The notes under the pieces were generated by a model that saw only the letters and a list, made by a program, of their open reading frames with translations, made no database searches and was not told the origin of the DNA. A program made the position numbers and the translations under genes. From a bacterium (GTDB lineage Bacteria; Patescibacteriota; Minisyncoccia; Moranbacterales; GWC2-37-73), in NCBI GenBank assembly GCA_003251635.1, contig QKEW01000001.1:15588-79587 (forward strand): a stretch of 64,000 nucleotides of DNA. The letters are read 5' to 3'. Below, in pieces: positions 38,997 through 63,312 of this stretch; position 1 is the first letter of the stretch, and every line of letters begins with the position of its first letter.

Positions 38997-39014
38997 TTTT
39001 TAAAATAGGAAGAT

Positions 39015-39131
39015 ATGAAACAAAAAACTCAAAAGTTTCTCAAAAAATCCTCCTATTGGCTGGGGATAATCATTTTCGGAGCCATTTTGGGAGTTTCTCT
39101 GCAAATAACCAAGGCTGCTTGGACTGAGCCT
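39015..39131 (+). repeat. Direct repeat copy 2 of the 5' coding cassette
   Basis: See copy 1. Confidence 0.8.
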
Positions 39132-43963: not shown

Positions 43964-44542
43964 TTGGAGAGATTTAATGAATATGCTACTATTAAGTTTA
44001 GATTTATAACTTTTGCAAAAATGGATTTAGCACAAATAAAAAAAACTTATCTGCTTGAATTGGAAAAAGAATTGAAAAAAGTGCCCGAGGGACTTCATTG
44101 GCGCGCGCCTGAATTTGAGGTGGTGCAAAAGAGTTGGTATTGGTATCTGCTCATGATGTTGTTTCTTTTGGGAATTGTGACTTATGCACTTTTTGTGGAT
44201 AGCCCGATAATGGCCATAACTTTCATTTTGGTTGGAATTGTCGGCTATCTGCATTTGCAAAAACAGCCAAGAATTTTGGATTTCAAGATCAGCGGCGAAG
44301 GCGTTCAAGCTGGTCGGGATTTTTATGATTTTGAAAATGTTGAATCTTTTTGGATTTTTTATCATCCGTCGGAGATTAAATCAATAAGTTTGAGAACCAA
44401 GAACTCGGTAATTCCTTTTGTGCACATTCCTTTGGGCGATCAAGATCCCGTAGTGGCCCGCGACTTCCTCACTCGTTTCTTGAAAGAAAAAAAACAGACG
44501 CCAAGCTTTGTGAATGCGCTTGAAAGACTTTTTCATGTTTGA
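43964..44542 (+). CDS. Hypothetical membrane protein (two TM helices; the start is probably the internal MDLAQIKK)
   Basis: Hydrophobic pair WYWYLLMMLFLLGIVTYALF and IMAITFILVGIVGYL. No motif recognised. Confidence 0.35.
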   Translation: MERFNEYATIKFRFITFAKMDLAQIKKTYLLELEKELKKVPEGLHWRAPEFEVVQKSWYWYLLMMLFLLGIVTYALFVDSPIMAITFILVGIVGYLHLQKQPRILDFKISGEGVQAGRDFYDFENVESFWIFYHPSEIKSISLRTKNSVIPFVHIPLGDQDPVVARDFLTRFLKEKKQTPSFVNALERLFHV

Positions 44543-44644
44543 TGCGGAATCCAGCGGTCGGGGGTTGCTTTTTTAAGGTTTTTGCGCTAGTTTAGTTAGG
44601 ATTGATTTGATGGAATTTATGGTTTAGCGGGTTTTGGGAAATTT

Positions 44645-44718
44645 GCTCTCGTAGCTCAGTGGATAGAGCGTCTGGTTGCGGTCCAGAAGGTCGTAGGTTC
44701 GACTCCTGCCGGGAGCAC
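44645..44718 (+). tRNA. tRNA-Arg (anticodon read as GCG)
   Basis: GCTCTCGTAGCTCAGTGGATAGAGCGTCTGGTTGCGGTCCAGAAGGTCGTAGGTTCGACTCCTGCCGGGAGCA folds as a cloverleaf with acceptor 7 bp, D-stem GCTC/GAGC, anticodon stem TCTGG/CCAGA with loop TTGCGGT, and T-loop TTCGACT. No encoded CCA. Confidence 0.7.
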
Positions 44719-44762
44719 AACAGAAATTATCTTATCAGATAAACTTTTTAAAAATAAAATAT

Positions 44763-45260
44763 ATGTTTGGAAAACTTTTTTCCGGGGCCATGGAAAAGCT
44801 TAAATCGGAAAAAGGCGCTGTGCCTGTTTCGCCTTCTCCCTTGGCTGAACCTGAAGTGAGGGCGGCAAATTTAAAAATACCGAAAGCAACCAAAGTTCCT
44901 GAGGGGGAAATTGATCTCCCGGTGGGAGATTTTATACTAAAAGGAGTTAAGGATAAAATAAAAATCCCAAACAGGGATGAGGTGTATCAAAAATATTTTT
45001 CTCACGACTCTTTCTTGCATGAGATATTTAAAATAAAAGAGTCTAATTTTACAGTAGAAAAAAATCCACAGCTTAATGAAAAAGGCTATTACTATCTTTT
45101 TGCCACAGTTTTAAAAATAAATCCAAACATTTCGCAGTTAAGAGAAGTTGCCGAGCAGGGTGGTTGGGTAGTAACTGAAGGAGCTAGATATTATCTGTTT
45201 GAAAAAGAGGTCGGACCGGAATATTTTGCCAAAAAATCTTCCAATGAAACGGTGCACTGA
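44763..45260 (+). CDS. Hypothetical protein
   Basis: 165-aa ORF. No motif recognised. Confidence 0.3.
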   Translation: MFGKLFSGAMEKLKSEKGAVPVSPSPLAEPEVRAANLKIPKATKVPEGEIDLPVGDFILKGVKDKIKIPNRDEVYQKYFSHDSFLHEIFKIKESNFTVEKNPQLNEKGYYYLFATVLKINPNISQLREVAEQGGWVVTEGARYYLFEKEVGPEYFAKKSSNETVH

Positions 45261-49090: not shown

Positions 49091-51070
49091 GTGATTTTTT
49101 TTGAATTTTTTATGCGATTTGAGATTGATTCAAAATTTCAACCTTCCGGTGATCAGCCGGGAGCCATCAAGGAATTGACACAAGGATTGAAAGACGGACA
49201 GCGTTTTCAAACGCTTTTGGGTGTGACCGGATCAGGTAAGACATTTACGATGGCCAACGTGATTGAGGCGGTGCAAAAACCCACTTTGGTAATTGCGCCC
49301 AATAAAACCCTGGCCGCTCAGCTGGCTCAAGAATTTCGCTTGTTTTTTCCCAAGAATTCGGCGGAATATTTCGTATCCTACTATGATTACTACCAACCGG
49401 AAGCTTATATTGCATCATTCGGAGCTTACATTGAAAAAGAAGTTCAAATCAATGAGGAGATTGATCGGTTGCGTCATGCGGCGACGGCCGCTTTGCTTTC
49501 GCGGCGCGACGTGGTGATTGTGGCCTCAGTTTCTTGCATCTATGGTTTGGGCTCGCCGGAATATTACAAAAAAGGTACGGTTGAAGTGATCGTTGGTCAG
49601 AAAAACAGTCGGGAAAAAATTATGCAAGGCTTGATTGAGATGCAATATCAACGATCGGAGATTTTGGAACGCGGAAAATTTCGAGTAGTTGGCGATGTGT
49701 TGGAAGTGATCATGCCTGGACGGGAAGTGATCACTCGGATTGAATTGGAAAGTGGCAAAGTCGCGTCGATTCGGGAATATGATTTTTTAACCGGTGAAAA
49801 ATTGGGACAATTGGAGAAAACTTTGATTTTTCCGGCCAAGCACTTTGTGGTGCCGGAAGAAATTTTGGAAAATTCATTTGAGCAGATCGAGCGTGAAGCA
49901 ATCGAGCGGGAAAAATTTTTTACTAAAAATGGTCAGAATTTGGAGGCGGAAAGAATTCGCCTGAGAACTCGGCATGATTTGGAAATGATGCGTGAAATCG
50001 GCTATTGCAATGGAATTGAAAATTATTCGCGTTATTTGACCGGACGAGAAGCTGGGGAAGCGCCTTATACTTTGCTGGATTATTTTCCTGAGGATTTTTT
50101 GTTGATCATTGATGAGTCGCACGTGACAATTCCGCAATTGGGCGCGATGTTCAATGGCGACAAATCGCGTAAAAATTCTTTGATCGAAAACGGTTTTCGT
50201 TTGCCAAGTGCCTATGATAACCGCCCGTTGAAATTTGAAGAATTTGAAGGCAAGATCAATCAAGCTATTTTCACTTCAGCCACTCCGGGAAATTATGAAA
50301 AGAAAAACTCAAGCCAAATTGTGGAACAGATCATTCGTCCAACCGGTCTTTTGGATCCGCAAATTGAAATCAAACCGGCTCGAGGGCAAGTCAAAGACGT
50401 GTTGGGTCAAATTGAGAAAGTGGTTGAAAAAAACCAACGGGTTTTGATCACGACTTTGACCAAGAAACAGGCTGAAGATTTGGCGGAATTTTTGCGGGAA
50501 AATGAAATTAAATCTGAGTATTTGCATTCCAATGTGGATACCTTGGATCGAATTCGAATTTTGGAAGGCTTGCGGCGCGGTGAGTTTGACGTTTTGGTGG
50601 GAGTCAATCTGCTACGCGAAGGTTTGGATTTGCCGGAAGTTTCTTTGGTGGCGATTTTGGATGCGGACAAGGAAGGGTTTCTGCGCAGTGAAACTTCTTT
50701 GATTCAGACCATTGGTCGAGCGGCTCGCAATGTCAATGGCAGAGTGATTCTCTATGCGGATGCCCCAACCGGTTCAATGAAAAAAGCCATTGGGGAAACC
50801 GAGCGTCGGCGCCAATTGCAAATGGACTACAATCAAAAACATCACATCACGCCCAAAACGATTGAGAAAAAAATCCAGTCAATTGTGGATCATGAAATCA
50901 ACCCGCAAATGGTCCAAGACTTTTCTCACTTGGAATCTTTGGAAAATATTGGAGCCTACATCAAGCAGAAAGAAAAAGAGATGAAGACGGCGGCCAAGAA
51001 TCTGGAATTTGAAAAAGCCGCCCTGATTCGAGATGAGATTTCCCAGTTGCGCAAATTGCAACTTAACTAA
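49091..51070 (+). CDS. uvrB: Excinuclease ABC subunit B (the true start is probably MRFEIDSKFQ at 49112)
   Basis: FQPSGDQPGAIKEL, helicase motifs GVTGSGKT and DESH, and a C-terminal UVR domain EFEKAALIRDEISQLR. 659 aa. Confidence 0.9.
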   Translation: MIFFEFFMRFEIDSKFQPSGDQPGAIKELTQGLKDGQRFQTLLGVTGSGKTFTMANVIEAVQKPTLVIAPNKTLAAQLAQEFRLFFPKNSAEYFVSYYDYYQPEAYIASFGAYIEKEVQINEEIDRLRHAATAALLSRRDVVIVASVSCIYGLGSPEYYKKGTVEVIVGQKNSREKIMQGLIEMQYQRSEILERGKFRVVGDVLEVIMPGREVITRIELESGKVASIREYDFLTGEKLGQLEKTLIFPAKHFVVPEEILENSFEQIEREAIEREKFFTKNGQNLEAERIRLRTRHDLEMMREIGYCNGIENYSRYLTGREAGEAPYTLLDYFPEDFLLIIDESHVTIPQLGAMFNGDKSRKNSLIENGFRLPSAYDNRPLKFEEFEGKINQAIFTSATPGNYEKKNSSQIVEQIIRPTGLLDPQIEIKPARGQVKDVLGQIEKVVEKNQRVLITTLTKKQAEDLAEFLRENEIKSEYLHSNVDTLDRIRILEGLRRGEFDVLVGVNLLREGLDLPEVSLVAILDADKEGFLRSETSLIQTIGRAARNVNGRVILYADAPTGSMKKAIGETERRRQLQMDYNQKHHITPKTIEKKIQSIVDHEINPQMVQDFSHLESLENIGAYIKQKEKEMKTAAKNLEFEKAALIRDEISQLRKLQLN

Positions 51071-51176: not shown

Positions 51177-52076
51177 ATGAGTATTGATGGCAGTGAAGAC
51201 ACAAGAAAAACGCCAGGCGATTTTTATTCCAAGGCTTTTTCTCGAAATATTGGTTTATTAAGTAAAAAGGAGCAAGACACTCTGAAAAAATCAAAAATTG
51301 CAATAGCGGGACTTGGTGGTGTTGGGGGTAACTATTGTTTAAGTATGGTCAGGACTGGTTTGGGAAATTTTTCTATTGCCGATTTTGATTCTTTTGAGGT
51401 TGCTAATATTAATAGGCAAGCCGGCGCTGAGGTGGATACTTTTGGGCGAGCTAAATGTGAAGTTATGGCGGAAAAAATATTAGCAGTTAACCCTCACGCT
51501 GAAGTTGAAAAGTTCTCAAAGGGTATAAACGAGGACAACATGGATGAATTTTTGCAAGAAGTCGATGTTGTTTTGGATGGTTTAGATTTTTTTGCAATCA
51601 AAGAAAGGTTGTTGCTTTTTCGTAAAGCTAGAGAAAAAGGGATTTTTGCGATAACTTCGCCCCCGGTTGGTTTCGGGGCGGCTTTATTGGTTTTTGATCC
51701 TAAGGGGATGAGTTTTGAGGATTATTTTGATATTCAAGCTGGAATGGAGGAAAAAGAAATGTTATTTCGTTTCGGAATTGGATTAACCCCGTCATTTATA
51801 CAAAGAGCCTATTTTCGTCCAGATTCAATAGATTTGTCTGGCAAAAAAACTCCATCTCTGAGTATTGGGACTCAAATGTGCAGTGCACTGGTTTCTTGTG
51901 AGGTTGTTAAGATAGTTTTAGATAAAAAAATTCGAGCTGTTCCTTGCTCTACTCATTTCGATCCCTATGTTCAAAAGTATAGGAAAATATATTTGCCTTG
52001 GGGAAACAGAAACCCCAAACAATTATTTAAGAGATGGGTAATTAAAAAAATTCTTAAAAATAGTGGGAAAATATGA
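51177..52076 (+). CDS. ThiF/MoeB/TcdA-family E1-like adenylyltransferase
   Basis: Rossmann nucleotide-binding motif IAIAGLGGVGGNYCLSMVRTG plus DFD...NINRQ. 299 aa. First gene of an 11-gene co-directional cluster. Confidence 0.7.
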   Translation: MSIDGSEDTRKTPGDFYSKAFSRNIGLLSKKEQDTLKKSKIAIAGLGGVGGNYCLSMVRTGLGNFSIADFDSFEVANINRQAGAEVDTFGRAKCEVMAEKILAVNPHAEVEKFSKGINEDNMDEFLQEVDVVLDGLDFFAIKERLLLFRKAREKGIFAITSPPVGFGAALLVFDPKGMSFEDYFDIQAGMEEKEMLFRFGIGLTPSFIQRAYFRPDSIDLSGKKTPSLSIGTQMCSALVSCEVVKIVLDKKIRAVPCSTHFDPYVQKYRKIYLPWGNRNPKQLFKRWVIKKILKNSGKI

Positions 52077-52741
52077 AAGAGGCTAAAAAATTTAAAAGAA
52101 GTAGTAAAATTCTAATAAAAGCGCGATATTTTGTTGGGGATTTGGTGATCTTCATGAGTCAGATATTTTTATATGTATCTGTTTCCAGAATACTTCGTTT
52201 TTATTTTAAGGCTAATAAGAAAATTGATTATCCGAGCAAGTCTATAAAAAATGGATCCTTGATAATCTCCAATCATCAATCAATGCTGGATCCCTTTGTT
52301 ATTACAGCCTACCTGCCTTTTAGGGATTTTTTGAAAATAATTCCAATAAGATATCCAACTAGTCATAGACATTTTATGAAGATGCCGTTTTTAGCTTTTT
52401 TTGGAGCTTACAGTATAGGGGGAGATAAAAGAAGTAAGATGTTGAAACTTTTTCTTACTAGAGAACATTTGGCCAGAGGAAGAAGTATAATGCTATTTCC
52501 TGAGGGTAAAATTTGTTATAATCCCAATGAGGGAATGAGTGAATTTCAAAAAGGTGTAACTTTTTTAACAGATATTGCCAACAACGTTTTGATTGTCAGA
52601 ATGGAGGGATTTCATAGTTGTGACTGGATTAAGCTTTGGCGAAAGCATAGGAGTATGGCTTTTAGTGATCTATATAATTTCCAGGGAAAAGATAAGGACG
52701 TCAACGATTTAAAGGAATGTCTGGAACAGTTACCTGTCTAA
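52073..52741 (+). CDS. PlsC-family lysophospholipid/aminolipid O-acyltransferase (OlsA/PlsC-like), N-terminal TM
   Basis: HX4D box ISNHQSMLDPF and FPEGK motif. 4-bp overlap with the upstream gene. 222 aa. Confidence 0.7.
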   Translation: MKEAKKFKRSSKILIKARYFVGDLVIFMSQIFLYVSVSRILRFYFKANKKIDYPSKSIKNGSLIISNHQSMLDPFVITAYLPFRDFLKIIPIRYPTSHRHFMKMPFLAFFGAYSIGGDKRSKMLKLFLTREHLARGRSIMLFPEGKICYNPNEGMSEFQKGVTFLTDIANNVLIVRMEGFHSCDWIKLWRKHRSMAFSDLYNFQGKDKDVNDLKECLEQLPV

Positions 52742-52762
52742 TTAATTCGTAAAGATACTGTT

Positions 52763-53452
52763 ATGGAAATCGCAAATTGTTCTAGGTGGAATGATTCGTG
52801 CGTGAATAAATACTTTTCTATTGAGGAAAAAAAGACTTTTGAAGGAATGGATTTTGCTAGAAAAAATGATTGGATTTTGGGTCGAATTGCAGCTAAGCGA
52901 GCAGTAGCAAGACTTTTGGTAAAAAAATTTTCCCTAAGAATTGCTCATAATGATGTTAATATAGTTTATTTAGAAAGTGGCAAACCGCAGGTTGAAATTT
53001 TGAATCTTGAGATTAGCAAAAAAATAATAGAATATGGACTTGAGAATAATATTGATATTTCCATATCTCATTCTGGATCAATAGCTTTAGCGGCAGTTTC
53101 AATTATGAGTGAAGATGGCTGCGTGGGGATTGATATTGAAAGAGAGAGGAAATTTTCTTCACAAGTAAGGGGAGCATTTTTAAATAAAGAAGATGAGATT
53201 GTTATTTCCAGAAAACCGCCGGTAAATTTGAACAAGATGGTAACTTTTTATTGGTGTGCCAAAGAAGCATTTCTTAAGGCTAAAGGAGTTGGTATTAGGC
53301 AGCATCCAGCCACAGTAAGTCTTTTTTTTCAAGAAAAAAATTGTGGAAAAATTATTGATAAAACGGAACCTTCGATCAAAGCTTTTTTTCAAAGAATAAA
53401 TTTTTCGAAAGGGCATGTGGCGGCTGTAGTGAATATTGCATCTAAGTATTGA
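52763..53452 (+). CDS. 4'-phosphopantetheinyl transferase (Sfp/EntD-type)
   Basis: GIDIERERKF and FYWCAKEAFLKAKG correspond to PPTase motifs (G-D-E and W-KEA-KA-G). 229 aa. Confidence 0.7.
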   Translation: MEIANCSRWNDSCVNKYFSIEEKKTFEGMDFARKNDWILGRIAAKRAVARLLVKKFSLRIAHNDVNIVYLESGKPQVEILNLEISKKIIEYGLENNIDISISHSGSIALAAVSIMSEDGCVGIDIERERKFSSQVRGAFLNKEDEIVISRKPPVNLNKMVTFYWCAKEAFLKAKGVGIRQHPATVSLFFQEKNCGKIIDKTEPSIKAFFQRINFSKGHVAAVVNIASKY

Positions 53453-53493
53453 TAGGTAATTTTTATAAATCGTCGGAATAAAAAATAAAAACT

Positions 53494-53724
53494 ATGGATA
53501 AGATAACGGAGAGGGTTTATGAAGTTATCAACAAAACGCTGGAGGGTGAAAAAAAAGTTTTAACGTTGGAAGCTAAAATAGAGGATATATGCAAAGACTC
53601 AATTCAAATATTTGGTTTGATAATGGCATTTGAAAAAGAATTTCAAAAAAAAGTAACTTACGAAGATTTAATAAGCATTGAAACTGTCGGAGATGTTATT
53701 GATTACATAAGAACCAATTATTAG
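53494..53724 (+). CDS. Acyl carrier protein (stand-alone, 76 aa)
   Basis: DICKDSIQIFGLIMAFEKEF aligns with the ACP LGADSLDTVELVMALEEEF region; Ser is in DSI. Confidence 0.65.
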   Translation: MDKITERVYEVINKTLEGEKKVLTLEAKIEDICKDSIQIFGLIMAFEKEFQKKVTYEDLISIETVGDVIDYIRTNY

Positions 53725-53727
53725 AAA

Positions 53728-54510
53728 TTGAAATTTATGAAGTTAAAAAATATAACTAAAACAACTATGATTTTTTTTACATTTTTGATTATTGGTATAG
53801 TTCTTTTCCTGACTTTAAATGGGTTTTTTAACGGATTTAGTTTTAAGCTCAAATATGGTACTCTTTCTTTTTTTGGAACCAAGGAAAAAATGAACACCTT
53901 AAATCAGGAAAGTATTACTGATTCCAAGAATGGAAATGAAATTGCAACAATTATAATTCATGGAGCTGGAGCCAGTTATTACAAAGATGTTTATGGGATG
54001 ACTGTTTGGCTAAAAAGTCAGGGTTTTAATCCGATTTCATTTGATTATGATTATAAGGATTCACCGGATATTTCCGCAGAGAAACTAGCGGAGTTCGTTG
54101 ACGAGGTGCTTGTAAAAACTGATAAAAGTAAAGTTAATATTTTAGGATTATGTTTGGGTGGTTTGCTTGCTAAATACTATGTGCAAGAATTCAATGCAAG
54201 TGATAAAATTGAGAAATTCGTTTCTGTTGTTTCACCAGCAAAAATTATTCCAAAAAAAGAACCAGCTTACCAATATAATAAATTCTTTTCTTTTGATCCG
54301 GAGCCTTGGAATTTTGTTTTAAAGGAATTGGAAAATAAAAATCCAATCGATAATCATCTTTATATTTATTGTAAAAAAGATTTATTAGTTCCAAGTAAAT
54401 ACCAATTTTCTCAAGAGGGAAATTATCTGGGCTTAAGTTGTGGACATTCTTTCATAAATTCTAATCCGGAAATATTAAATAGGACTGTCGATTTTTTTCA
54501 GAAAAAATAA
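53728..54510 (+). CDS. Membrane-anchored alpha/beta-hydrolase-fold enzyme with a Cys in the nucleophile elbow (GLCLGG)
   Basis: N-terminal TM, oxyanion IIIHGAGAS, and a nucleophile elbow ILGLCLGGLLA with Cys instead of Ser (compare PHA synthase GxCxG and dienelactone hydrolase GYCLGG). Confidence 0.5.
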   Translation: MKFMKLKNITKTTMIFFTFLIIGIVLFLTLNGFFNGFSFKLKYGTLSFFGTKEKMNTLNQESITDSKNGNEIATIIIHGAGASYYKDVYGMTVWLKSQGFNPISFDYDYKDSPDISAEKLAEFVDEVLVKTDKSKVNILGLCLGGLLAKYYVQEFNASDKIEKFVSVVSPAKIIPKKEPAYQYNKFFSFDPEPWNFVLKELENKNPIDNHLYIYCKKDLLVPSKYQFSQEGNYLGLSCGHSFINSNPEILNRTVDFFQKK

Positions 54511-54529
54511 AAACAATAAAACCTTACTA

Positions 54530-55723
54530 ATGTTTAGCAGGATAAAAATATTATTATCTTTTGCACTCCGAGATATATCCAAAAGTAGGACTACTTTAAT
54601 ACTGACAGTTTTTAGTTTGACGGCTATATTTACGGCAGTTATTTTGTCCACTAGTATTTTGGATGGTTTTCAAGCTACTTTGCAAAATGGTTCAATAAAC
54701 ACTGGCGGTCATCTCACTGTAAAACCAGCAAAAGGTGAGAATATAAAAAATATAGATTTGGTTCAAAATGATTTGGGTCTCAATGAAGAGATTGAAGGCT
54801 ACAGCACAAGGAGTCATGCTGGCCTTATTATGGAAATTGACGGATCTTTTAAAGGGGTTGGATATGCAGCATTAGGGGTGGATCCCATGATGGAAAGAAG
54901 TGCCTCGCAAGTTCCAAATTACTTGGTATCTGGACGTTATTTGCTTCCATCTGACGAGAGAAGCGTGGTTATTGGTGTCACCTTGGCTGATTTGTTGTCT
55001 GGCTTATTATATGACGGAAAAGAAATAAGTGTTGGTGAAGAGGTGAGATATATTTCACCTCTGACTGGCAAAGCTAGAGACTACACGGTAGTGGGGATTG
55101 TTGATACTAAATATTTTCATTCAAATTGGAGTTCTTATTTTCCTAAAAAAGAATTGGAATGGCTAGATAATTCTAAAAAGGATAGTGAAATTATAGTTAG
55201 GTTAAAGGACCCAAGTAATATTGAAGATCAGCGACAGGTTTTACAAAATGAACTGAATGGCGAAAAAGTTTTTACCTGGAATGAAAAAGAGGGATATATT
55301 TTTAACATAGTAATGGCTATTAAGTTTATTACGGGAAATATAAGTAATCTCTTGATAATCACAGCCTTTGTTATTGTTAGCGTTATTATTTACATAAATG
55401 TGTCACAGCGACGCAGGCAAATTGGAATAATAAAATCAATGGGAGCTAAAAATAGTTTTGTAGTGGCTATTTATATGGTAGAGGCTTTGGTTTATTTTAT
55501 ACTTTCTTTTTTGTTGGCTTTTTTGGTTTTTTTGTTAATCCACATTTTTTTTGTGAATAATCCAATACCTTTGCTTATTGGAGATTTTCGCACCGTAATT
55601 GTTAAAAGCGATATGGTAAAAATATTTTTTATTCTTATTTTATCAACAATTTCTGGTAGCATGATTCCGTCTTATATTGCTGCTAGAACGCAGATTGTTA
55701 ATGTTTTAAGAGGGGAATCCTGA
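54530..55723 (+). CDS. ABC transporter permease, FtsX/MacB/LolC-like (TM1, periplasmic domain, three C-terminal TMs)
   Basis: FtsX-domain C-terminus ...QRRRQIGIIKSMGAKNSFV... followed by three TM helices. 397 aa. Confidence 0.8.
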   Translation: MFSRIKILLSFALRDISKSRTTLILTVFSLTAIFTAVILSTSILDGFQATLQNGSINTGGHLTVKPAKGENIKNIDLVQNDLGLNEEIEGYSTRSHAGLIMEIDGSFKGVGYAALGVDPMMERSASQVPNYLVSGRYLLPSDERSVVIGVTLADLLSGLLYDGKEISVGEEVRYISPLTGKARDYTVVGIVDTKYFHSNWSSYFPKKELEWLDNSKKDSEIIVRLKDPSNIEDQRQVLQNELNGEKVFTWNEKEGYIFNIVMAIKFITGNISNLLIITAFVIVSVIIYINVSQRRRQIGIIKSMGAKNSFVVAIYMVEALVYFILSFLLAFLVFLLIHIFFVNNPIPLLIGDFRTVIVKSDMVKIFFILILSTISGSMIPSYIAARTQIVNVLRGES

Positions 55724-55730
55724 TGAGCTT

Positions 55731-56930
55731 ATGAATTATTTTATAAGTAAATTTAGAATAATTATTTCTTTCGCTCTGAGAGATTTTTCTAAGAGTCGTT
55801 TTGTTTTGATGTTTACAATTATTGGTTTAAGCTCAGCTTTTACAGCTGTGTTTTTATCTAGGGGTATTTTGGACGGCTTTCGAACTACCCTGGAGAGTGG
55901 TGCTGTTGATGTCATTGGACACTTGATTGTATATCCTCAAGAAGGGGAGGATGAAATAGAAAAGGTTGATTCACTAATCGAAAAAATAAAAAAGATTGAT
56001 AATGTTCAAGCTCTTAGTCTTAGGAATCAGACGTTTGTCATGCTTGAATACAAGGGTCATGTCCCCGGTTCCTATACTGGATTGGGTATAGATTTTAAAC
56101 AAGAATCTCAAACAACTAAATTGCCATTTGATATTGTTGAGGGTAGATTCTTGAGTGGAAAAGATTCCAAAGAAATAGTTATTGGTCAAAATTTGGCAGA
56201 CGCTTTGGTGGATCTAGAGTATGATGGCGAGAAAGTTCCAGTTGGTGCTAAAGTTCAAGTCATAACAACTTCAGGTCAAAAAATTTCCTATAAGGTGGTT
56301 GGAATATTGGATGGTAAAACATTTGTTCCAAATTGGATGGCGTATTTCAATAAGGATGAGATGGAAAGAATTGAGCCTCAAACTAAAAATAATCAAATCA
56401 TAATAAAATTGAAAGACGAAAATTTTTTGGAGGAAACTAGAGAATTGATTCAAAGTCAGAATCCAAATGTTAGAGTTAGGACTTGGCATGAGGAAGCTAC
56501 TTATGTAGATGACATGGTTTTGGCGACTCAATTTATAACAGGTTCAATTGTAGTCCTTTTGGTTATTTCAGTGATAATAGTTACCAGTGTGATCATATTT
56601 ATCAATGTTTATAATCGTCGTCGCCAAATTGGTATTTTGAAATCAATGGGGGCCAGTAATCGTTTTATTATTATAATTTATTTAAGTGAAGCTCTTCTTT
56701 ATTCAACAACTGCTTTTATTTTTGGATTTTTATTTTTCATGTTGATTAACATAAAGTCAATTGAAAATCCTATCCCTCTATTGATTGGAGATTTTCACAC
56801 AGAATTTAACTCGCGCGATATTGTCCCCCTAGCTTTGATTTTTGTGGTTGCTACTTTTGGAGGTAGTTTATTTCCCGCTTTGTCTGCAGCTAAAACTCGT
56901 ATAGCTGATGTTTTGCGAAATGTTATATAA
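55731..56930 (+). CDS. Second paralogous FtsX/LolE-like ABC permease
   Basis: Same architecture; ...NRRRQIGILKSMGASNRFI... 399 aa. Confidence 0.8.
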   Translation: MNYFISKFRIIISFALRDFSKSRFVLMFTIIGLSSAFTAVFLSRGILDGFRTTLESGAVDVIGHLIVYPQEGEDEIEKVDSLIEKIKKIDNVQALSLRNQTFVMLEYKGHVPGSYTGLGIDFKQESQTTKLPFDIVEGRFLSGKDSKEIVIGQNLADALVDLEYDGEKVPVGAKVQVITTSGQKISYKVVGILDGKTFVPNWMAYFNKDEMERIEPQTKNNQIIIKLKDENFLEETRELIQSQNPNVRVRTWHEEATYVDDMVLATQFITGSIVVLLVISVIIVTSVIIFINVYNRRRQIGILKSMGASNRFIIIIYLSEALLYSTTAFIFGFLFFMLINIKSIENPIPLLIGDFHTEFNSRDIVPLALIFVVATFGGSLFPALSAAKTRIADVLRNVI

Positions 56931-56979
56931 TTTATTATTATATATTTGTAAGCATAATTTTAAAATGAAGTTTAAATAA

Positions 56980-57675
56980 ATGGAAGCTTTGGTAAGCATT
57001 AGAAATGTTTTTAAAGAATATGTTATGAGCAGCCAGTTGACGATACCGGCTCTTAACGGAATTAGCCTGGATATAATCAAAGGCGAATTTTTGGCGATTA
57101 CTGGTCACTCTGGCTCAGGAAAAAGTACCTTGCTGAATTTGCTGGGACTTTTAGATGATCCTACTCGGGGTGAAATATATTTTGCGGGAAGTGACATTCA
57201 TAATTTTACAGAAAAACAAAAAGTCAGCTTTCGTCTTAATGCTATAAGTTTTGTTTTTCAATTTTTTAATTTAATAGAAAATTATACTGCTGTTGAAAAT
57301 ATTAGTTTTCAATTATTATTGCAAGGATATAGTGGAAGGGAGGCAAAAAATAGAGCTAGGGAAATTATTGATTTTCTTGGACTTTCCGATAGGGCTTCAT
57401 TTTTTCCTCATGAGCTTTCTGGCGGGCAACAACAAAGAGTGGCGATTGGTCGCGCCTTAGCCAAAGACTCTTTGCTTATTTTGGCTGATGAGCCCACAGC
57501 CCATCTTGATTCCAAGAATGGAGAAGCCATTATTGAACTTTTACATGATATAAATAAGCAATTCAATCGCACAATAGTGCTTGTTACCCATGAAAAAGAA
57601 GAGGCTCGTCACTCTGACAGAAATATTATGATGCGTGATGGAAAAGTGGTGAATATAGTCAATGTGCAAAAATAA
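56980..57675 (+). CDS. ABC transporter ATP-binding protein (MacB/LolD type)
   Basis: Walker A GHSGSGKSTLL, signature LSGGQQQRVAIGRAL, and Walker B ILADEPT. 231 aa. Confidence 0.9.
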   Translation: MEALVSIRNVFKEYVMSSQLTIPALNGISLDIIKGEFLAITGHSGSGKSTLLNLLGLLDDPTRGEIYFAGSDIHNFTEKQKVSFRLNAISFVFQFFNLIENYTAVENISFQLLLQGYSGREAKNRAREIIDFLGLSDRASFFPHELSGGQQQRVAIGRALAKDSLLILADEPTAHLDSKNGEAIIELLHDINKQFNRTIVLVTHEKEEARHSDRNIMMRDGKVVNIVNVQK

Positions 57676-57866
57676 TTTTCTCAAATTTCTTTTCAGGCAA
57701 AAAATATGCTACAATATTGAAAATAGTAGTTTTTTAAACTCTATTAAAATCGATTATATTTCAGGAATATTTTTTGCTTTTGTTGCTGGCACCTTTTGAT
57801 TGCTAATGGAGAATTTTAAGTTATATGATTCGATTTTTGATTTAATTCGTTGCAAATTAAACATCA

Positions 57867-59429
57867 TTGATGAGTAATTTTGTAAAGTGGATTTTGATTT
57901 TGTTCTTGCTTGCGGCTATTGGATCCGTATTTTTTTGGTATTTCTTTATTTTTAAAAAAGCTGACAGTTCCGATGTTGATGAAATATCAGAGGAAACTTA
58001 TGTCGAAGTTGGGCCAGTTAAAAAAATTATTGAAATAGATGATGCTCGAGTGGCTTCCGATGACTCTTTTTCACTGGCTTTTCCGGTTAGTGGAAAAATA
58101 GAGAAAATTTATAAGCATGAGGGTAAATTTGTTTTTGAAGGAGATGAAATTGTTAAGTTGGAGACAACCGAGTTGGAGCTTCAATCTAAAATTTTGCAAA
58201 CAAAGCTATTGGCGGCTCAGGCTAATTTGGATAAGCTTTATGCTGGTGCGGTAGAGGAATATAGAAATTTAGTTGACGAGGAGTTATCTGGCGCTAAATA
58301 TGGTTTGGCAGAAGCTAGCAAGGGGGTTGTGAATGCAATTCAGGCTCTTGCCAATCAAATTGACGATGCTGTTAGGGGTAAGACGGATGAACTTTTTTCC
58401 GGTCCAAGAAGTTCAAATCCACAACTACTGGTGACTATTGGAAATTCAGATTTAGAGAATGATATTGAAGGGGGTAGGGCTGAATTAGAATCGGATATGG
58501 ATGATATTGTAGATATGGCAGAATCAATAAAGACGTCTGATGATCTTGAGAAAAAAACCTCCAAGGCAAGAAAGATTACTGAAAACACCCAAGAATATTT
58601 AACCAAGCTAGCCTCCTTGATTAATCAGTTAAGTGTTTCGGGTGAACTAACTCAGGACCTGATTGATAGATATAAATCTGAGGTTTCTTTGGCTCGGACT
58701 CAGGTTAACACCGCTGTCGCATCTCTGGGTTTGGTAATGGAAGATTATTCGGAACTTGAGGTTGATAGAAAAGTGGCTAAAAGTAAATTGTATTTAGTTG
58801 AAGCTAATCCTCGAGTTGAGGATATAACTATAGCTCAAGCTGGGATTGATGAAATAAGTATTCAAATAGATATTTTAAATAATCACATTAAGGATTCCAC
58901 TATCAAGGCAAGTAAGGCTGGTTTTTTAAAGAAAATATTTTTTGACGAGCAAGAGATAATCCCAGAAGGTGTTCCGGAGGTTATCTTGGAAAGTGTAGAT
59001 CTTTATGTAGAAGCTGATATTCCAGAGGAGAATATTTCAAAAATCGATAGTGGGGTTATCGCGACTGTCAAATTCGAAGCGATAGGAGGAAAACAATTCA
59101 AAGGCGAAGTTGAGCTTATTGAGCCTTACGCCATAGAAAAAGATGGTGATGTTTTTTATCGTTCTCATGTAAGGATTGATGATCTTGATTCTGGGGTGAG
59201 GGTTGGGATGACGGCTGAGGTTTCCATTGAATCATTAGAGGATATTTCATCCTTGAGAATTCCTATTGGATATGTTATTGATCGCGGAAGTAAAAGTTTC
59301 GTAATAGTTTCAAAGGGTTTGGTAAGGGAGGAGGTTGAAATAGAAAAAGGCATAGAAGACGAAGGTTTTATTCAGGTTCAAGGAGGTCAAATAAGTGAAG
59401 GGGATAAAATCATTTTTCCAAAAATTTAA
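57867..59429 (+). CDS. HlyD/MacA-like periplasmic adaptor (membrane fusion protein) with a long coiled coil
   Basis: N-terminal TM, lipoyl-like VSGKIEKIYKHEGKFVFEGDEIVKLE, an alpha-helical hairpin of about 250 aa, and a C-terminal beta-barrel GMTAEVSIE. Confidence 0.65.
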   Translation: MMSNFVKWILILFLLAAIGSVFFWYFFIFKKADSSDVDEISEETYVEVGPVKKIIEIDDARVASDDSFSLAFPVSGKIEKIYKHEGKFVFEGDEIVKLETTELELQSKILQTKLLAAQANLDKLYAGAVEEYRNLVDEELSGAKYGLAEASKGVVNAIQALANQIDDAVRGKTDELFSGPRSSNPQLLVTIGNSDLENDIEGGRAELESDMDDIVDMAESIKTSDDLEKKTSKARKITENTQEYLTKLASLINQLSVSGELTQDLIDRYKSEVSLARTQVNTAVASLGLVMEDYSELEVDRKVAKSKLYLVEANPRVEDITIAQAGIDEISIQIDILNNHIKDSTIKASKAGFLKKIFFDEQEIIPEGVPEVILESVDLYVEADIPEENISKIDSGVIATVKFEAIGGKQFKGEVELIEPYAIEKDGDVFYRSHVRIDDLDSGVRVGMTAEVSIESLEDISSLRIPIGYVIDRGSKSFVIVSKGLVREEVEIEKGIEDEGFIQVQGGQISEGDKIIFPKI

Positions 59430-59442
59430 TTAAATAGATTGT

Positions 59443-60567
59443 ATGAAAAATCAGTTAATAGCGATTCGTAATGCTGTTGAGCGGTTTGTGTATAAAAATA
59501 TTTTTCGAAAAATATTTTTTTTATATGATCCGGAAAAAATTCATGATAGGATGATATTTTTTGGTAGGTGGTTGGGTAATTATTCATTTACTCGAACGCT
59601 AACGTGCCTATTCTTTGGATACAAAAATAAAATTTTGAAACAAGAAATTTCAGGATTAAATTTCAAAAATCCAATTGGTTTGGCTGCGGGATTTGATAAA
59701 AACGCTGAACTTACCAATATTTTACCCAGTGTTGGGTTTGGTTTTATGGAAGCTGGTTCAATAACAGGGGAACCGTGTGAAGGAAATAAAAAACCGCGCC
59801 TTTGGAGACTTAAAAAATCAAAGGGGCTTTTAGTATATTATGGGTTGAAAAATGATGGCTGTGAAGTAATTGCTAAGCGCCTAAATGCTAAACAAAAATT
59901 TTTTCCACTTGGAATAAGTATAGCCAAAACCAACAACAAAGATACAGTTTCCCTTGACGGCGGAGTAGCTGATTATGTTAAAGCTTATAAAAACCTCGTG
60001 GATTTAGCTGATTATATAACTGTCAATATAAGCTGCCCCAATGCTTATGGCGGATGTCCTTTTATTAGTAAGGAATATTTAAATAAACTTCTAGCTGGAT
60101 TAATGAATATTGAAAGTTCAAAACCGATTTTTTTGAAGCTATCCCCAGATCTTAGTCATGAGGAGATTGATATTATTGTTGAAGTTGCTGGGGAATATAA
60201 CGTAACAGGCTTTATTTGCACTAACCTTACCAAGAAGAGGGAGAATGCGAATTTAAAAGATGCAGACATTTCTCAGGTGGGTGGAATGAGTGGCAAGGTG
60301 GTTGCCGAGATGGCTGATGACTTGATAAAATACATATATTCCTCCACAAAGGGCGGGTTTGTTATAGTGGGTTGCGGAGGGGTTTTTTCAGCCCAGGATG
60401 CTTATAGAAAAATAAGATTGGGAGCCTCACTGATCCAATTGATTACGGGTATGATATATGAAGGACCTCAGTTGATTGGGGAGATAAACAGAGAGTTAGC
60501 TTTAATGCTTAAAAAAGATGGATTCTCATCAATTACTCAGGCAATTGGGGTTGATAATAGATCGTAA
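59443..60567 (+). CDS. Class-2 (membrane-associated, quinone-type) dihydroorotate dehydrogenase-like flavoenzyme
   Basis: GFGFMEAGSITGEPCEGNKKPRLWRL matches the DHODH GFGFVE(I/V)G(S/T)VTP.PQ.GNP.PR(L/I)FRL box, and the N-terminal amphipathic extension is typical of class 2. 374 aa. Confidence 0.7.
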   Translation: MKNQLIAIRNAVERFVYKNIFRKIFFLYDPEKIHDRMIFFGRWLGNYSFTRTLTCLFFGYKNKILKQEISGLNFKNPIGLAAGFDKNAELTNILPSVGFGFMEAGSITGEPCEGNKKPRLWRLKKSKGLLVYYGLKNDGCEVIAKRLNAKQKFFPLGISIAKTNNKDTVSLDGGVADYVKAYKNLVDLADYITVNISCPNAYGGCPFISKEYLNKLLAGLMNIESSKPIFLKLSPDLSHEEIDIIVEVAGEYNVTGFICTNLTKKRENANLKDADISQVGGMSGKVVAEMADDLIKYIYSSTKGGFVIVGCGGVFSAQDAYRKIRLGASLIQLITGMIYEGPQLIGEINRELALMLKKDGFSSITQAIGVDNRS

Positions 60568-60575
60568 CTTTATTA

Positions 60576-61259
60576 TTGTTTATGAAAAAAATTGATTTTT
60601 ACTTGGTTTGTTCGGGTGACAAAATTGAAAAAGCAAATGGTTTGATTTTATCGGAATACGGAAAAGAAGGATATGTTGATTTAACTGGAGAAAAATCAGG
60701 TTTAAATCCTTTGAAGGGGGATTTGAACTCGCAATTATTTACTTTTTTAGCTTTGAGTGATGGATTTGTGCTTGGTACAGTGAGTATTGTTGTTGATGAA
60801 AAGTGGGGACTTCCATTGGATGAAATTTTTAAGATTGAAGCTGATGGACTTAGAGCTTTCGGGGAAAAATGTGCAGAGGTTGCACGGTTAGCTGTGAATC
60901 GTCAGGCTGGGGATTTTTTTGGAATTGACCAACGTAAAATACAAATGTCTATATCATTGTCATTGTTTAAAATGGTTTTTTATTGTGCTAAAGCTAGAAA
61001 TATTGATATTCTTTGCATAACTATAAATCCTAAACATGAAAATTTCTATGAGGCTTTGGGTTTTGAATCGGTCGGTGAAATGAAAAGTTACGATACTGTT
61101 AATGGAGCGCCAGCTTTACTGAAAATCCTTAGATTGAAAAACCTAGACGTTATGAAAAATAATTTTGTTGGAAGAGAGATTTTGGAAAATCCTATTGATA
61201 TGAATGTTTTTGACCTTAAGGAGAAAAAAGACAAGATTATTTTTTCTCAAGAATTTTAG
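60576..61259 (+). CDS. GNAT-fold N-acyltransferase resembling acyl-ACP-dependent N-acyl amino acid synthases (OlsB/FeeM/Acetyltransf_5-like)
   Basis: EVARLAV...ITINPKHENFYEALGF pattern as in the OlsB/NAS/LuxI-like acyl-ACP N-acyltransferase fold. 227 aa. By-eye call; needs an HMM. Confidence 0.45.
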   Translation: MFMKKIDFYLVCSGDKIEKANGLILSEYGKEGYVDLTGEKSGLNPLKGDLNSQLFTFLALSDGFVLGTVSIVVDEKWGLPLDEIFKIEADGLRAFGEKCAEVARLAVNRQAGDFFGIDQRKIQMSISLSLFKMVFYCAKARNIDILCITINPKHENFYEALGFESVGEMKSYDTVNGAPALLKILRLKNLDVMKNNFVGREILENPIDMNVFDLKEKKDKIIFSQEF

Positions 61260-61265
61260 TTAAAA

Positions 61266-62327
61266 TCAAATATTTTTTATCATTTTTTCAAGATCTTTGC
61301 GGCCTGAGATTGAGGTTGGCTTATTGGCATAACCAGCCCTAAAAAGAGCCACGAAAGCATCGCTTTTTAAGTTTGGAAATTTTTCCGTGAAATAATTTTC
61401 AATTTCTTTTCGAATACGTTCATGTTTGGGCAAAAGGCCACCTTTTTCTAATTGCCCGTTTAAAATAAAGGCTATAGGTCCAAAAAGTGGTTGAATTGAA
61501 ATGTCATATTCTGACATTTTTAACCAGACTGACTGTAAGGCTCGACCTCCTTGAATGTAGGTATGAGGATGTTGCTTTTTTGGTATGGTCATTAGGCCTA
61601 TTGCATTAGAATGTTTGATATTATTTCTGGTATGAAGAACTGATCCAATTCCTAAAAGTTTCCAAATAAAAGGAAGTTGATTGGCTATGGCTATAGAGGG
61701 TTTAAAGAAATGTCTTTTTGGACCTAATTCTAAACTTTCAAGAGAAAGTCCGTCACTGTGAATTTTTTTTCCAAATCTAAGCATTCGAACAAGATTTTCG
61801 CGCAATTTTTGATCTTCCCAAAGAATGGTGTCGTGGGTTGATATCAATTTTGATAGTTTGGATATTTCTTGCGCAGAGTCAATCCACTGTAAGTTAACTT
61901 GATTTTCCTGAGCTAATTTGATTGCTTCGTTCTTTAGCTCAGGGTGAATAGGTTTTTTGAAAAATTTGCGTCTGTTTGTTTTTCTTTTGGTTAAGTATTC
62001 ATATAGATGCAAAGATTTCTTGGAATCTTCTTTTTCAAGAGATATTTTAGCTAAGGGTTCACCTGCATTATGTTTTAGAAGTTCTATTTTAATTTCCCAG
62101 CCCAGATGTTTTGCTTGTTGATGGATATTTTCCAGCACGGTTCCCAAGCTTACGAAATCGGCAAAATGGTTAATGTTGTAAATATGATTAGCATGAGTAT
62201 TTTCGTGGTCATGAAACAGAAAGATATTATTCTTGTCTTTTTTAAAAAGCCAAGGTTGGCAATTATCGGCAGATGGAGCCAATTGTCCCGCGGCCAATAG
62301 AATATCAAGAGGGTTTGATGAATTCAT
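61266..62327 (-). CDS. Double-length nitroreductase-family protein (Acg-like)
   Basis: N-terminal APSADNCQPW, the nitroreductase S-x-x-N-x-QPW box. 353 aa, about twice the single-domain size, with a second half ending in a G-rich flavin region. Confidence 0.5.
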   Translation of the reverse strand: MNSSNPLDILLAAGQLAPSADNCQPWLFKKDKNNIFLFHDHENTHANHIYNINHFADFVSLGTVLENIHQQAKHLGWEIKIELLKHNAGEPLAKISLEKEDSKKSLHLYEYLTKRKTNRRKFFKKPIHPELKNEAIKLAQENQVNLQWIDSAQEISKLSKLISTHDTILWEDQKLRENLVRMLRFGKKIHSDGLSLESLELGPKRHFFKPSIAIANQLPFIWKLLGIGSVLHTRNNIKHSNAIGLMTIPKKQHPHTYIQGGRALQSVWLKMSEYDISIQPLFGPIAFILNGQLEKGGLLPKHERIRKEIENYFTEKFPNLKSDAFVALFRAGYANKPTSISGRKDLEKMIKNI

Positions 62328-62721: not shown

Positions 62722-63312
62722 ATGCGGAAAATAGCTTTTATAATTCTGGGATATAATCAAAACAAGAAAAATGTGCCGGCTTTTGGAAAAATCGAATCTT
62801 TTTTTCAGGCCAAAAATTTTCAAACGGTTATGGTTGACATTGATTGGAAATATAAAACTCTTTCGGATTATGTGGCTCAGTTTGAAAAAATTTATCTGGA
62901 AAATGTCAAAAAAGATGACCAAATTTGTTTTTTAGGTTTTTCTCTTGGAGCTATGATTGCTTTGATATCTTCGGAAAAACTGAAACCAAAATTTCAAATT
63001 CTCTGTTCTTTGTCCCCCTATTTCAAGGAAGATTTGCCCAGGATTAAAAATTGGTGGAAGGTTTTTTGGGGTAAAAGGAGGATGGAAGATTTTGCCAAAT
63101 TTTCTTTGAATAAGCTGGCTAAAAATATTCCCACCAAAACCATAATTCTAGCCGGTGACAAAGAGGATTGGGAAGTTGAAATCAGAGCCAAGGAAGCTCG
63201 GCAAAAAATACGAAACAGTCAATTGATTTTTATTCCTAATGCTAAGCATGACATTGGGCAGACTGAATATCTGACAGAGGTTGAAAGAATAATTTCAGAA
63301 AAGGTTTTTTGA
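62722..63312 (+). CDS. Small alpha/beta hydrolase (serine hydrolase)
   Basis: Nucleophile elbow GFSLGA. About 196 aa with a short fold. H in PNAKHD near the C-terminus. Confidence 0.55.
   Translation: MRKIAFIILGYNQNKKNVPAFGKIESFFQAKNFQTVMVDIDWKYKTLSDYVAQFEKIYLENVKKDDQICFLGFSLGAMIALISSEKLKPKFQILCSLSPYFKEDLPRIKNWWKVFWGKRRMEDFAKFSLNKLAKNIPTKTIILAGDKEDWEVEIRAKEARQKIRNSQLIFIPNAKHDIGQTEYLTEVERIISEKVF

Follow-up and report, generated by a model that had tools for sequence, protein, structure and literature searches.

What would a bacterium of the candidate phyla radiation (CPR, or Patescibacteria) make with a private acyl carrier protein (ACP), two acyltransferases, an adenylating enzyme and a tripartite pump? 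CPR bacteria are regarded as metabolically minimal epibionts that are unable to make fatty acids, and their host-interaction molecules are largely unknown. The question is raised by a gene cluster in a 64,000-nucleotide (64-kb) stretch of contig QKEW01000001.1, hereafter the window, for which an earlier sequence-only reading had described eleven co-directional genes and proposed the synthesis and export of an aminolipid along the lines of ornithine lipids. Our analysis points to a twelve-gene island that is probably devoted to the biosynthesis and export of an acyl-oxazolone or N-acyl-dehydro-amino-acid lipid in a carrier-protein-dependent form. At its core lie an N-acyl amino acid synthase (NAS) of the FeeM family, a ThiF-like adenylating cyclase and FDO, a flavin oxidase of the nitroreductase superfamily.

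The sequence-only reading had taken the GNAT enzyme of the cluster for an OlsB-like acyltransferase. We found no OlsB-type family at E<=0.01; the sole Pfam family at that level was PF21926 FeeM (100.3 bits, 1.2e-28), and the only relative of the synthase in the PDB was FeeM itself (2G0B, 1.3e-22). This result bears on an ornithine-lipid-like route, in which OlsB-like N-acylation with 3-hydroxyacyl-ACP would be followed by OlsA-like O-acylation, with the pump exporting a diacylated aminolipid. A GNAT-fold N-acyltransferase, a PlsC-family HX4D enzyme and an ACP are indeed tightly co-conserved here, and an N-acyltransferase paired with a PlsC-type enzyme is the established textbook route to ornithine and glycine lipids (OlsBA, GlsBA). 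However, the N-acyltransferase matches FeeM only, the ThiF and FDO genes, which have a known joint function, are equally conserved, and the PlsC-like protein falls far under every NCBIfam cutoff. The route also calls for fatty acid synthase genes to supply 3-hydroxyacyl-ACP; as the sequence-only reading had noted, there are none in the window, which is otherwise of housekeeping character, and we found none in related loci either. The OlsB/OlsA model is thus not supported, and we consider such a route quite improbable.

The PlsC-like protein itself is short and divergent. Its best NCBIfam matches were models of Aas (acyl-ACP:phospholipid O-acyltransferase), weak and all far under cutoff, and a sequence search of the PDB gave no match for it. 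H68/D73 and F142-P-E-G145 are kept in 16 orthologues, and HX4D, FPEG and the Pfam Acyltransferase match place the protein at superfamily level only as far as an OlsA function is concerned. Of the proposed double acylation, N-acylation of an amino compound held up; OlsA-like O-acylation, which found no specific support, may nevertheless occur.

The E1-like enzyme had been recognised in the sequence-only reading and set aside as foreign to any canonical aminolipid pathway. Its presence stands, and it is no longer an unexplained extra, since NCBIfam models, gene fusions and the literature identify it as the cyclase of a known oxazolone pair with FDO. The 989-residue NCBIfam model PRK14852 matches all three core proteins (FeeM at positions 37-217, ThiF at 311-588 and FDO at 621-800), and the 679-residue model PRK14851 joins ThiF (360 bits on positions 20-301) to FDO (173 bits on positions 328-673, 5.5e-51). 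ThiF also scored 342 bits against PRK08223, for which the cutoff is 266. We then searched exhaustively for ThiF relatives with HMMER and mapped the domains of the 150 nearest representatives at 50% identity. An FDO-homologous domain (~1e-36) was fused to ThiF in 74 of the 150, arranged as ThiF-FDO in 62, FDO-ThiF in eight and ThiF-FDO-FDO in four, and two of the 150 carried a fused FeeM-like domain. The best match overall was a 693-residue ThiF-FDO fusion with 51% identity. The closest PDB relative of ThiF was TcdA, the ThiF-like dehydratase that forms the oxazolone of ct6A. Conserved residues in the ThiF orthologues are G45/G47/G50/G51, R59, D69, D71, N79, R80, Q81, K93 and D134, and the orthologue alignment contains no conserved Cys.

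For FDO, we obtained matches to the NCBIfam Rv1355c family (positions 374-718, 2.5e-45), which like PRK14851 also takes in ThiF, and to the Acg family (130.7 bits, 7.7e-38). An AlphaFold2 model built from 15 sequences reached a predicted local distance difference test score (pLDDT) of 86.5, and its best PDB fold match, with template modelling scores of 0.68/0.73, was 2YMV, the Mycobacterium smegmatis Acg homologue that serves as the structural reference of the FDO subgroup within the nitroreductase superfamily. Profile matches and model together place the window protein in this monomeric, ~340-residue, Acg-fold subgroup, to which it would belong. FeeM, ThiF and FDO genes occur together in 13 CPR loci and in three loci from outside the CPR (L029, L037 and L062).

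Two other roles were considered for the ThiF-like enzyme and rejected. Action as a fatty-acid:ACP ligase is disfavoured by the dense fusion to FDO in its nearest relatives and by the absent conserved Cys. Azole synthesis of the thiazole/oxazole-modified microcin (TOMM) type, as by McbBCD for microcin B17, was dismissed since no YcaO match was obtained in the 13 open reading frames (ORFs) scanned and no precursor peptide was seen; all-against-all clustering of related loci likewise gave no conserved family of small ORFs as a precursor-peptide candidate.

The core genes also occur in other company. In locus L006 (7821-11062), the neighbours of an FDO with 53% identity, at the contig end, are a prenyltransferase of the UbiA family and a CMAS-type methyltransferase; this may represent a differently tailored version of the pathway. 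Locus L005 (5425-6747 and 14932-16020) contains a second, longer ThiF-family gene (440 residues) and a weakly recognisable FDO-like protein, together with an epimerase and an additional alpha/beta hydrolase.

The twelve genes of the window are as follows (coordinates in the window, strand, assignment and best match).

51177..52076, +, ThiF-like ATP-dependent adenylating cyclase (OxzB-N / TyzB / TrzS-N type); Pfam ThiF 1.1e-40
52073..52741, +, short, divergent PlsC-family (HX4D) acyltransferase; Pfam Acyltransferase 2.6e-8
52763..53452, +, Sfp/HetI-type 4'-phosphopantetheinyl transferase (PPTase); Pfam ACPS 4.8e-13 and 4PPT_N
53494..53724, +, dedicated ACP of 76 residues, attachment Ser36 in the DSI box; Pfam PP-binding 1.5e-5
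53728..54510, +, membrane-anchored LipA-like minimal alpha/beta hydrolase, Cys-Asp-His; PDB 6nkc match 2.4e-8
54530..55723, +, MacB/LolC-type permease 1 (FtsX and periplasmic core domain); MacB_PCD 7.7e-13, FtsX 1.5e-11
55731..56930, +, MacB/LolE-type permease 2; Pfam FtsX 1.9e-14
56980..57675, +, ATP-binding cassette (ABC) ATPase, LolD/MacB/DevA-like; Pfam ABC_tran 6.3e-33
57867..59429, +, HlyD/YknX-type membrane-fusion adaptor; HlyD_D23 1.7e-10, HlyD_3
59443..60567, +, class-2-type dihydroorotate dehydrogenase (DHODH) of a CPR/DPANN-wide type; Pfam DHO_dh 9.6e-70
60576..61259, +, FeeM-family NAS; Pfam PF21926 FeeM 1.2e-28
61266..62327, -, FDO, nitroreductase-superfamily flavin oxidase of 353 residues; PRK14851, Rv1355c and Acg family matches

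The first eleven are those of the sequence-only reading, and the ORF listing confirmed them on the plus strand at 51177-61259 with the operon-like spacing it had reported (-4, 21, 41, 3, 19, 7, 49, 191, 13 and 8 bp). The twelfth, the FDO gene, is convergent with FeeM at a distance of 6 bp and had been overlooked because it is coded on the opposite strand. The motifs on which the earlier assignments were built could all be read in the translations, namely GLGGVGG in ThiF, NHQSMLD and FPEG in the PlsC-like protein, GIDIE and WCAKEAFLKAKG in the PPTase, the DSI box of the ACP, GLCLGG in the hydrolase, GHSGSGKST and LSGGQ in the ATPase and EVARLAV in the GNAT enzyme. With the exception of the GNAT, every family named earlier was found above its Pfam gathering score (ThiF 139.8 bits, Acyltransferase 34.2, ACPS 49.6, PP-binding 25.6, Abhydrolase_1 30.6, ABC_tran 114.7, HlyD_D23 41 and DHO_dh 235.5; MacB_PCD and FtsX were also above gathering). 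The FeeM start is likely the ATG at 60582, because the database protein P0001 has 225 residues and the orthologues begin there. A promoter and terminator scan of 50.8-63.5 kb stayed at chance level (50 against 45.8 expected and 9 against 6.7) and is uninformative on operon structure. Rfam found only two tRNAs in the window, neither of them inside the cluster, and nothing notable emerged on direct reading of the 191-bp gap 5' of the adaptor gene or of the 395-bp region after the FDO gene.

To see how far the cluster holds together elsewhere, we collected neighbourhoods via FeeM and FDO homologues and by scanning a single genome of each species (60 loci), and compared them by tblastn and all-against-all clustering. 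The relatives that could be named are Moraniibacteriota, Paceibacterota and other CPR metagenome-assembled genomes. The following genes were counted in the 23 CPR loci.

FeeM, 21 of 23
PPTase, 18 of 23
PlsC-like, 17 of 23
ThiF, 16 of 23
ACP, 16 of 23
FDO, 14 of 23
HlyD/YknX-like adaptor, 14 of 23
ABC ATPase, 11 of 23
membrane-anchored GDSL/SGNH lipases, 11 of 23
FtsX permeases, 10 of 23
DHODH, 6 of 23
LipA-like Cys hydrolase, 5 of 23
UbiE-like methyltransferase, 5 of 23
VTT/DedA-like protein, 4 of 23

Co-localisation in relatives was thus borne out, and the arrangement cannot be put down to chance, given that this gene set turns up again in many other genomes. The usual CPR order is ThiF-PlsC-PPTase-ACP-FeeM, common to Paceibacterota, Moraniibacteriota, Kaiserbacteria, Zambryskiibacteria, Doudnabacteria and others, and in most loci FeeM directly follows the ACP gene; in the subclade of the window, the hydrolase, pump and DHODH genes are placed between these two. 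In ~36 loci from outside the CPR (Brocadiaceae, Omnitrophota, Desulfobacterota and others), FeeM stands alone or with ThiF and FDO, and tblastn placed PlsC, PPTase and ACP genes beside FeeM in none of them.

These counts also speak to a composite operon, in which the PlsC-like, PPTase, ACP and DHODH genes would be a general lipid and housekeeping kit, serving acyl-ACP-dependent phospholipid acylation in an organism without fatty acid synthase, that happens to lie beside an independent FeeM-ThiF-FDO module and an unrelated pump. Gram-positive-type PlsC enzymes do use acyl-ACP (textbook knowledge), the DHODH is clearly of a CPR-wide housekeeping type, and the pump, DHODH, hydrolase and methyltransferase genes vary between loci. 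The PlsC-like, PPTase and ACP genes, however, adjoin FeeM and ThiF in 16-18 of the 23 CPR loci amid unrelated flanks and are never found in the non-CPR FeeM loci. Moreover, the ThiF and PlsC-like genes overlap by 4 bp, most loci have the ACP gene next to FeeM, the curated cutoffs for genuine PlsC and AcpP are reached by neither the PlsC-like protein nor the ACP, and the block has a GC content of 0.341 against 0.397 in its surroundings. A composite origin is consequently unlikely in our view.

That the cluster has its own Sfp-type PPTase and ACP, as claimed earlier, is upheld by Pfam and TIGRFAM matches and by conserved residues. The PPTase scored 55.8 bits against TIGR00556 (cutoff 45) and retains D124, E126, W164, K167 and E168, which make up the Mg-binding D/E and the W..KE..K motifs. 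The ACP reached 56 bits against NCBIfam ACP models, under the AcpP cutoffs, with D35-S36 kept in 20 orthologues. From these features, the two proteins are predicted to form an Sfp-type PPTase and cognate carrier protein pair, which fits organisms that lack the ACP of fatty acid synthesis and AcpS. Since ACP and PPTase are private to the cluster, the CPR form is best described as a carrier-protein-dependent variant. FeeM has been described as an acyl-carrier-protein-dependent synthase, and the dedicated ACP, the PPTase and the ACP-FeeM adjacency suggest acyl-ACP rather than acyl-CoA as the donor.

The hydrolase encoded after the ACP gene resembles minimal lipases. It matched Lip_vut1 (6nkc, 2.4e-8) and Bacillus subtilis LipA in the PDB and, weakly, Abhydrolase_1 and Palm_thioest in Pfam; the nucleophilic Ser of LipA (AHSMGG) aligns with Cys in the window protein (GLCLGG). 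Five orthologues retain the Cys, Asp and His, and the protein has an N-terminal transmembrane helix, the only part for which a single-sequence AlphaFold model (pLDDT 39.7) is usable. Lysines around this helix, read by eye under the positive-inside rule, suggest that the hydrolase domain faces outward. Eleven CPR loci encode membrane-anchored GDSL/SGNH lipases with intact GDS and DxxH, often as tandem pairs (L017 10560-11984(-), L018, L019, L022, L023, L041-L043, L045, L052 and L068), and these are confined to exactly those loci that lack the LipA-like Cys hydrolase. This looks like non-orthologous replacement, and by implication the system would include a lipase or acyl-transfer step as an integral part.

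What such a step would accomplish can be envisaged in two ways, both consistent with the data: harvest of acyl chains from external lipids, which would address the question of how the ACP is loaded, or extracellular action on an exported, reactive oxazolone. The first idea extends to a larger scheme, to which we give limited credence, in which the oxazolone module is embedded in a lipid-scavenging and surface-modification system free of fatty acid synthase. The anchored lipase (Cys hydrolase or GDSL pair) would release acyl chains from lipids of the host or the environment and, with the PlsC-like protein as transacylase, feed them to the private ACP; the electrophilic azlactone, pre-activated with ATP before being pumped out, could then modify targets at the host interface by acylation, with no need of ATP outside the cell.

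A second small alpha/beta hydrolase (62722-63312, 196 residues) lies downstream of FDO. We rejected it as a member, given that it adjoins the cluster in no related locus; its Pfam matches are sub-threshold only, and it is probably unrelated to the cluster.

The tripartite FtsX/ABC/adaptor pump of the sequence-only reading was corroborated by MacB_PCD, FtsX, ABC_tran and HlyD_D23. Its domain content, with an FtsX pair of which one permease has a MacB core domain, a LolD-like ATPase and a YknX/HlyD adaptor, makes it a type VII ABC system, which by analogy would take lipid out of the outer face of the membrane or expel it from there. Permeases 1 and 2 scored 95 and 96.6 bits against the lolCE model (cutoff 362) and the ATPase 215.9 bits against LolD TIGR02211 (cutoff 307.75); as all lolCE, LolD, MacB, DevA and DevC equivalog models stayed under cutoff, these scores denote superfamily membership only. 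ATPase orthologues in relatives are 58-80% identical, and adaptor orthologues carry BSH_YknX and YknX_C.

A pump would also fit the export of a diffusible signal or antibiotic of the Fee type, similar to N-acyl homoserine lactones (AHLs), with an N-acyl amino acid as the exported species and ThiF and FDO acting in tailoring only. Antibacterial long-chain N-acyl tyrosines are products of FeeM-family synthases recovered from environmental DNA, the structure of FeeM is related to that of AHL synthases, and the acyl-tryptophan intermediates of TrzAS accumulate in the culture supernatant. This explanation differs from the oxazolone pathway solely in the end-product species, and conserved ThiF and FDO argue that the modified form is the one that matters, which makes a plain N-acyl amino acid a very unlikely end product.

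The DHODH is a PyrD of a CPR/DPANN-wide type and most likely no tailoring enzyme specific to the cluster. It scored 304 bits against the class 2 model TIGR01036 (cutoff 200) and 352 bits against NF003652 (cutoff 267), and its alignment to human DHODH begins with the N-terminal domain. Cys198 (NISCPN) occupies the position of the catalytic Ser (NVSSPN), and Val131 that of the orotate-binding Asn (xINxxG motif), residues which we take to be Ser215, the catalytic base, and Asn145 in the human enzyme; the lysine, the remaining Asn residues and the flavin mononucleotide (FMN)-binding Lys are retained. Oxidation of dihydroorotate to orotate is the same C-alpha/C-beta desaturation chemistry as that expected of FDO, which, together with the two substitutions, had prompted the idea of a neofunctionalised desaturase. 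We abandoned this idea as the main explanation because the same substitutions occur in CPR/DPANN homologues unlinked to FeeM: more than 100 homologous clusters with 57-66% identity were found in many CPR phyla and DPANN archaea, and in 20 CPR/DPANN homologues sampled Cys198 was invariant and Val131 nearly so. On the other hand, DHODH lies directly upstream of FeeM in seven contexts, all in the window's subclade, despite other rearrangements, and its GC content (0.359) is low like that of the island. The enzyme is probably the organism's ordinary housekeeping PyrD, a passenger in the operon, and a functional link to the pathway is unlikely. CPR and DPANN organisms are thought to lack quinones, and one possibility, to which we likewise give limited credence, is that in this subclade the quinone-type DHODH is linked by redox exchange to the couple of FDO and dehydro-amino acid. 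Elsewhere, DHODH has as its neighbours in L070 phosphoribosyltransferases and a flavocytochrome resembling ferric reductase (Ferric_reduct, FAD_binding_8, NAD_binding_1); in L071, its context is one of archaeal housekeeping genes.

Several features suggest that the cluster is a horizontally moving island. Its GC content of 0.341 contrasts with 0.397 for the rest of the window, where other genes average 0.401 with a standard deviation of 0.029, and all twelve cluster genes have GC <=0.372. The flanks of the cluster differ in every genome, and Bro-N genes or a phage-type integrase adjoin it in L001 (4415-5275), L007 (1670-2488) and L008 (5988-6998). In Candidatus Moraniibacteriota GCA_049287005.1 (L004, 886-12627), fusA (EF-G) and tuf (EF-Tu) enclose the entire cluster, which lies just ahead of the S10 ribosomal protein operon and has ThiF and FDO adjacent on the minus strand. 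A CPR-type cluster is also present in several assemblies titled 'uncultured Bdellovibrionales bacterium' (L009-L011 and L041), whose gene content is CPR-like and whose label looks doubtful.

Taken together, the pathway that we propose would begin with the Sfp-type PPTase converting the 76-residue ACP to its holo form, as its family and conserved residues indicate. A fatty acyl chain would then be loaded onto the ACP; as we saw no fatty acid synthase, this chain is probably scavenged. Candidates for loading, all speculative, are the PlsC-like acyltransferase, the lipase-type hydrolase and genes elsewhere in the genome. The FeeM-family synthase would pass the chain on to an amino acid, at its alpha-amino group; by analogy, this amino acid is probably aromatic (Tyr, Phe or Trp). 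Next, the ThiF-like enzyme would adenylate the carboxylate and close an oxazol-5-one ring, and FDO would desaturate the C-alpha/C-beta bond, as expected from homology to OxzB, TyzB/TyzC and TrzS, for which experiments have established the chemistry. The oxazolone ring may stay closed or be opened by hydrolysis, which would give the N-acyl-dehydro-amino acid. Finally, the LolCDE/MacB-like pump with its YknX/HlyD-like adaptor would carry the lipid to the cell surface or host interface, a step suggested by conserved co-location, and the Cys hydrolase would contribute an integral lipase or acyl-transfer step. The predicted N-acylation, ThiF cyclisation, FDO desaturation and export are well supported by independent lines, namely profiles, fusions, fold and neighbourhoods.

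A number of observations weigh against this pathway. Many CPR bacteria live anaerobically, and those FDOs that have been characterised require O2. ThiF and FDO are neither fused nor adjacent in the window's clade but lie ~9 kb apart. The link to OxzA/B and TyzA/B/C is indirect, through NCBIfam models, fusions, fold and literature, and one of the NCBIfam models behind it is itself named for the Rv1355c family. We found no ACP-loading enzyme in the cluster or in the 64-kb window, and clustering gave no AMP-ligase or acyl-ACP synthetase family conserved across related loci. Product, amino-acid substrate and acyl chain are all predictions. In addition, the characterised NAS enzymes of oxazolone pathways all use acyl-CoA (10.1101/2020.06.11.147165; PMC10404671, PMC12856293). 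Stieleria-type producers with the same three genes yielded no detectable oxazolone (PMC12479983), and the end product here may therefore be the open dehydro-amino acid.

Outside the cluster, the window holds several genes that deserve mention. Two UvrA paralogues (977 and 936 residues; 27675-30608 and 33036-35846) flank uvrC and a PGA_cap-family gene, and uvrB lies apart from them at 49091-51070, directly upstream of the cluster. Sizeable ORFs without a Pfam match at E<=1e-4 are found at 23840-25639, 37097-38134, 38496-39602 and 43964-45260, one of them encoding 599 residues directly after a YrhK-like gene. In a 518-residue protein (6543-8099), possibly a surface protein associated with pili, a pilin-like PilX_N N-terminus is joined to LVIVD and beta-propeller repeats.

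The suggestion that the system may be undescribed proved half right: the core chemistry is already known from OxzAB, TyzABC and TrzAS, whereas the CPR, ACP-dependent, pump-linked form of the pathway appears undescribed. In the literature that we searched, nothing relevant was found on oxazolones, N-acyl amino acid synthases or antiSMASH in connection with Patescibacteria or CPR. Few specialised-metabolite pathways can be assigned in the CPR radiation, and the island would be one of them, with a private ACP, a PPTase, acyltransferases, a cyclase, a flavin oxidase and a tripartite pump devoted to one exported lipid. It would widen the acyl-oxazolone family, with characterised members to date in Proteobacteria, mycobacteria and Planctomycetota, to a carrier-protein-dependent form, and it raises the question of how an ACP is acylated in a cell without fatty acid synthesis. 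The homologous genes of Mycobacterium tuberculosis affect oxidative-stress resistance and macrophage survival; because of this, and because oxazolones are reactive electrophiles, a role of the product at the host interface is plausible by analogy.

Among known systems, the FeeM/FeeL pair of the fee cluster from environmental DNA (2G0B) provides the sole Pfam and PDB relative of the window synthase, FeeM, which depends on an ACP; in CPR loci, adjacency of the ACP and NAS genes would, from the gene orders compared, be the ancestral order. To our knowledge, the N-acyl tyrosine of the fee cluster is tailored by enzymes other than a ThiF/FDO pair. The pump recalls LolCDE, MacAB and YknXYZ in that its two FtsX permeases have an extracytoplasmic domain and are joined by a LolD-like ATPase, as a separate protein, and by an adaptor; it differs from LolCDE and MacAB in its scores, which fall under the equivalog cutoffs, and in that no outer-membrane partner is evident. 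The clusters for stieleriacine and thalassotalic acid and that for kyonggic acid include NAS, ThiF and nitroreductase genes, to which that of Stieleria neptunia adds a UbiE-like methyltransferase, and the isolated products are open-chain N-acyl-dehydrotyrosines (PMC12479983). UbiE-like methyltransferases likewise occur in the CPR loci L004, L005 and L017 and on the P0017 contig. The cluster of the window has no methyltransferase, whereas no ACP, PPTase or pump has been reported for the stieleriacine-type clusters.

Closest in chemistry are the oxazolone pathways themselves. In Pseudoalteromonas rubra, OxzA is an N-acyltransferase, and OxzB, the "oxazolone synthetase", joins a ThiF and a nitroreductase domain (de Rond, Asay and Moore, 10.1101/2020.06.11.147165). 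[quoted passage not shown] OxzAB is a proteobacterial system with fused ThiF-FDO that draws acyl-CoA from beta-oxidation, whereas the window, in a CPR host, has separate ThiF and FDO, a presumed acyl-ACP donor and added PlsC-like, lipase-like and pump genes. In M. tuberculosis, TyzA N-acylates Tyr or Phe, TyzC (FDO) carries out an O2-dependent desaturation and TyzB (ThiF) cyclises with ATP to C12:0-tyrazolone, and TrzAS makes tryptazolones, for which Asp217 in the adenylation motif of TrzS (Rv1355c) is required (PMC10404671, PMC12856293). TyzABC comprises the same three activities, with TyzB and TyzC stand-alone as in the window; D134 of the window ThiF corresponds to Asp217 of TrzS, and the window FDO matches the Rv1355c family. 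The mycobacterial clusters differ in the use of acyl-CoA by TyzA and TrzA and in lacking ACP, PPTase, PlsC-like and lipase genes. A lipid transporter gene, mmpL9, adjoins tyz, in parallel to the pump genes of the window, although the transporter belongs to the MmpL/resistance-nodulation-division (RND) family in mycobacteria and to the MacB/Lol-type ABC family in the window.

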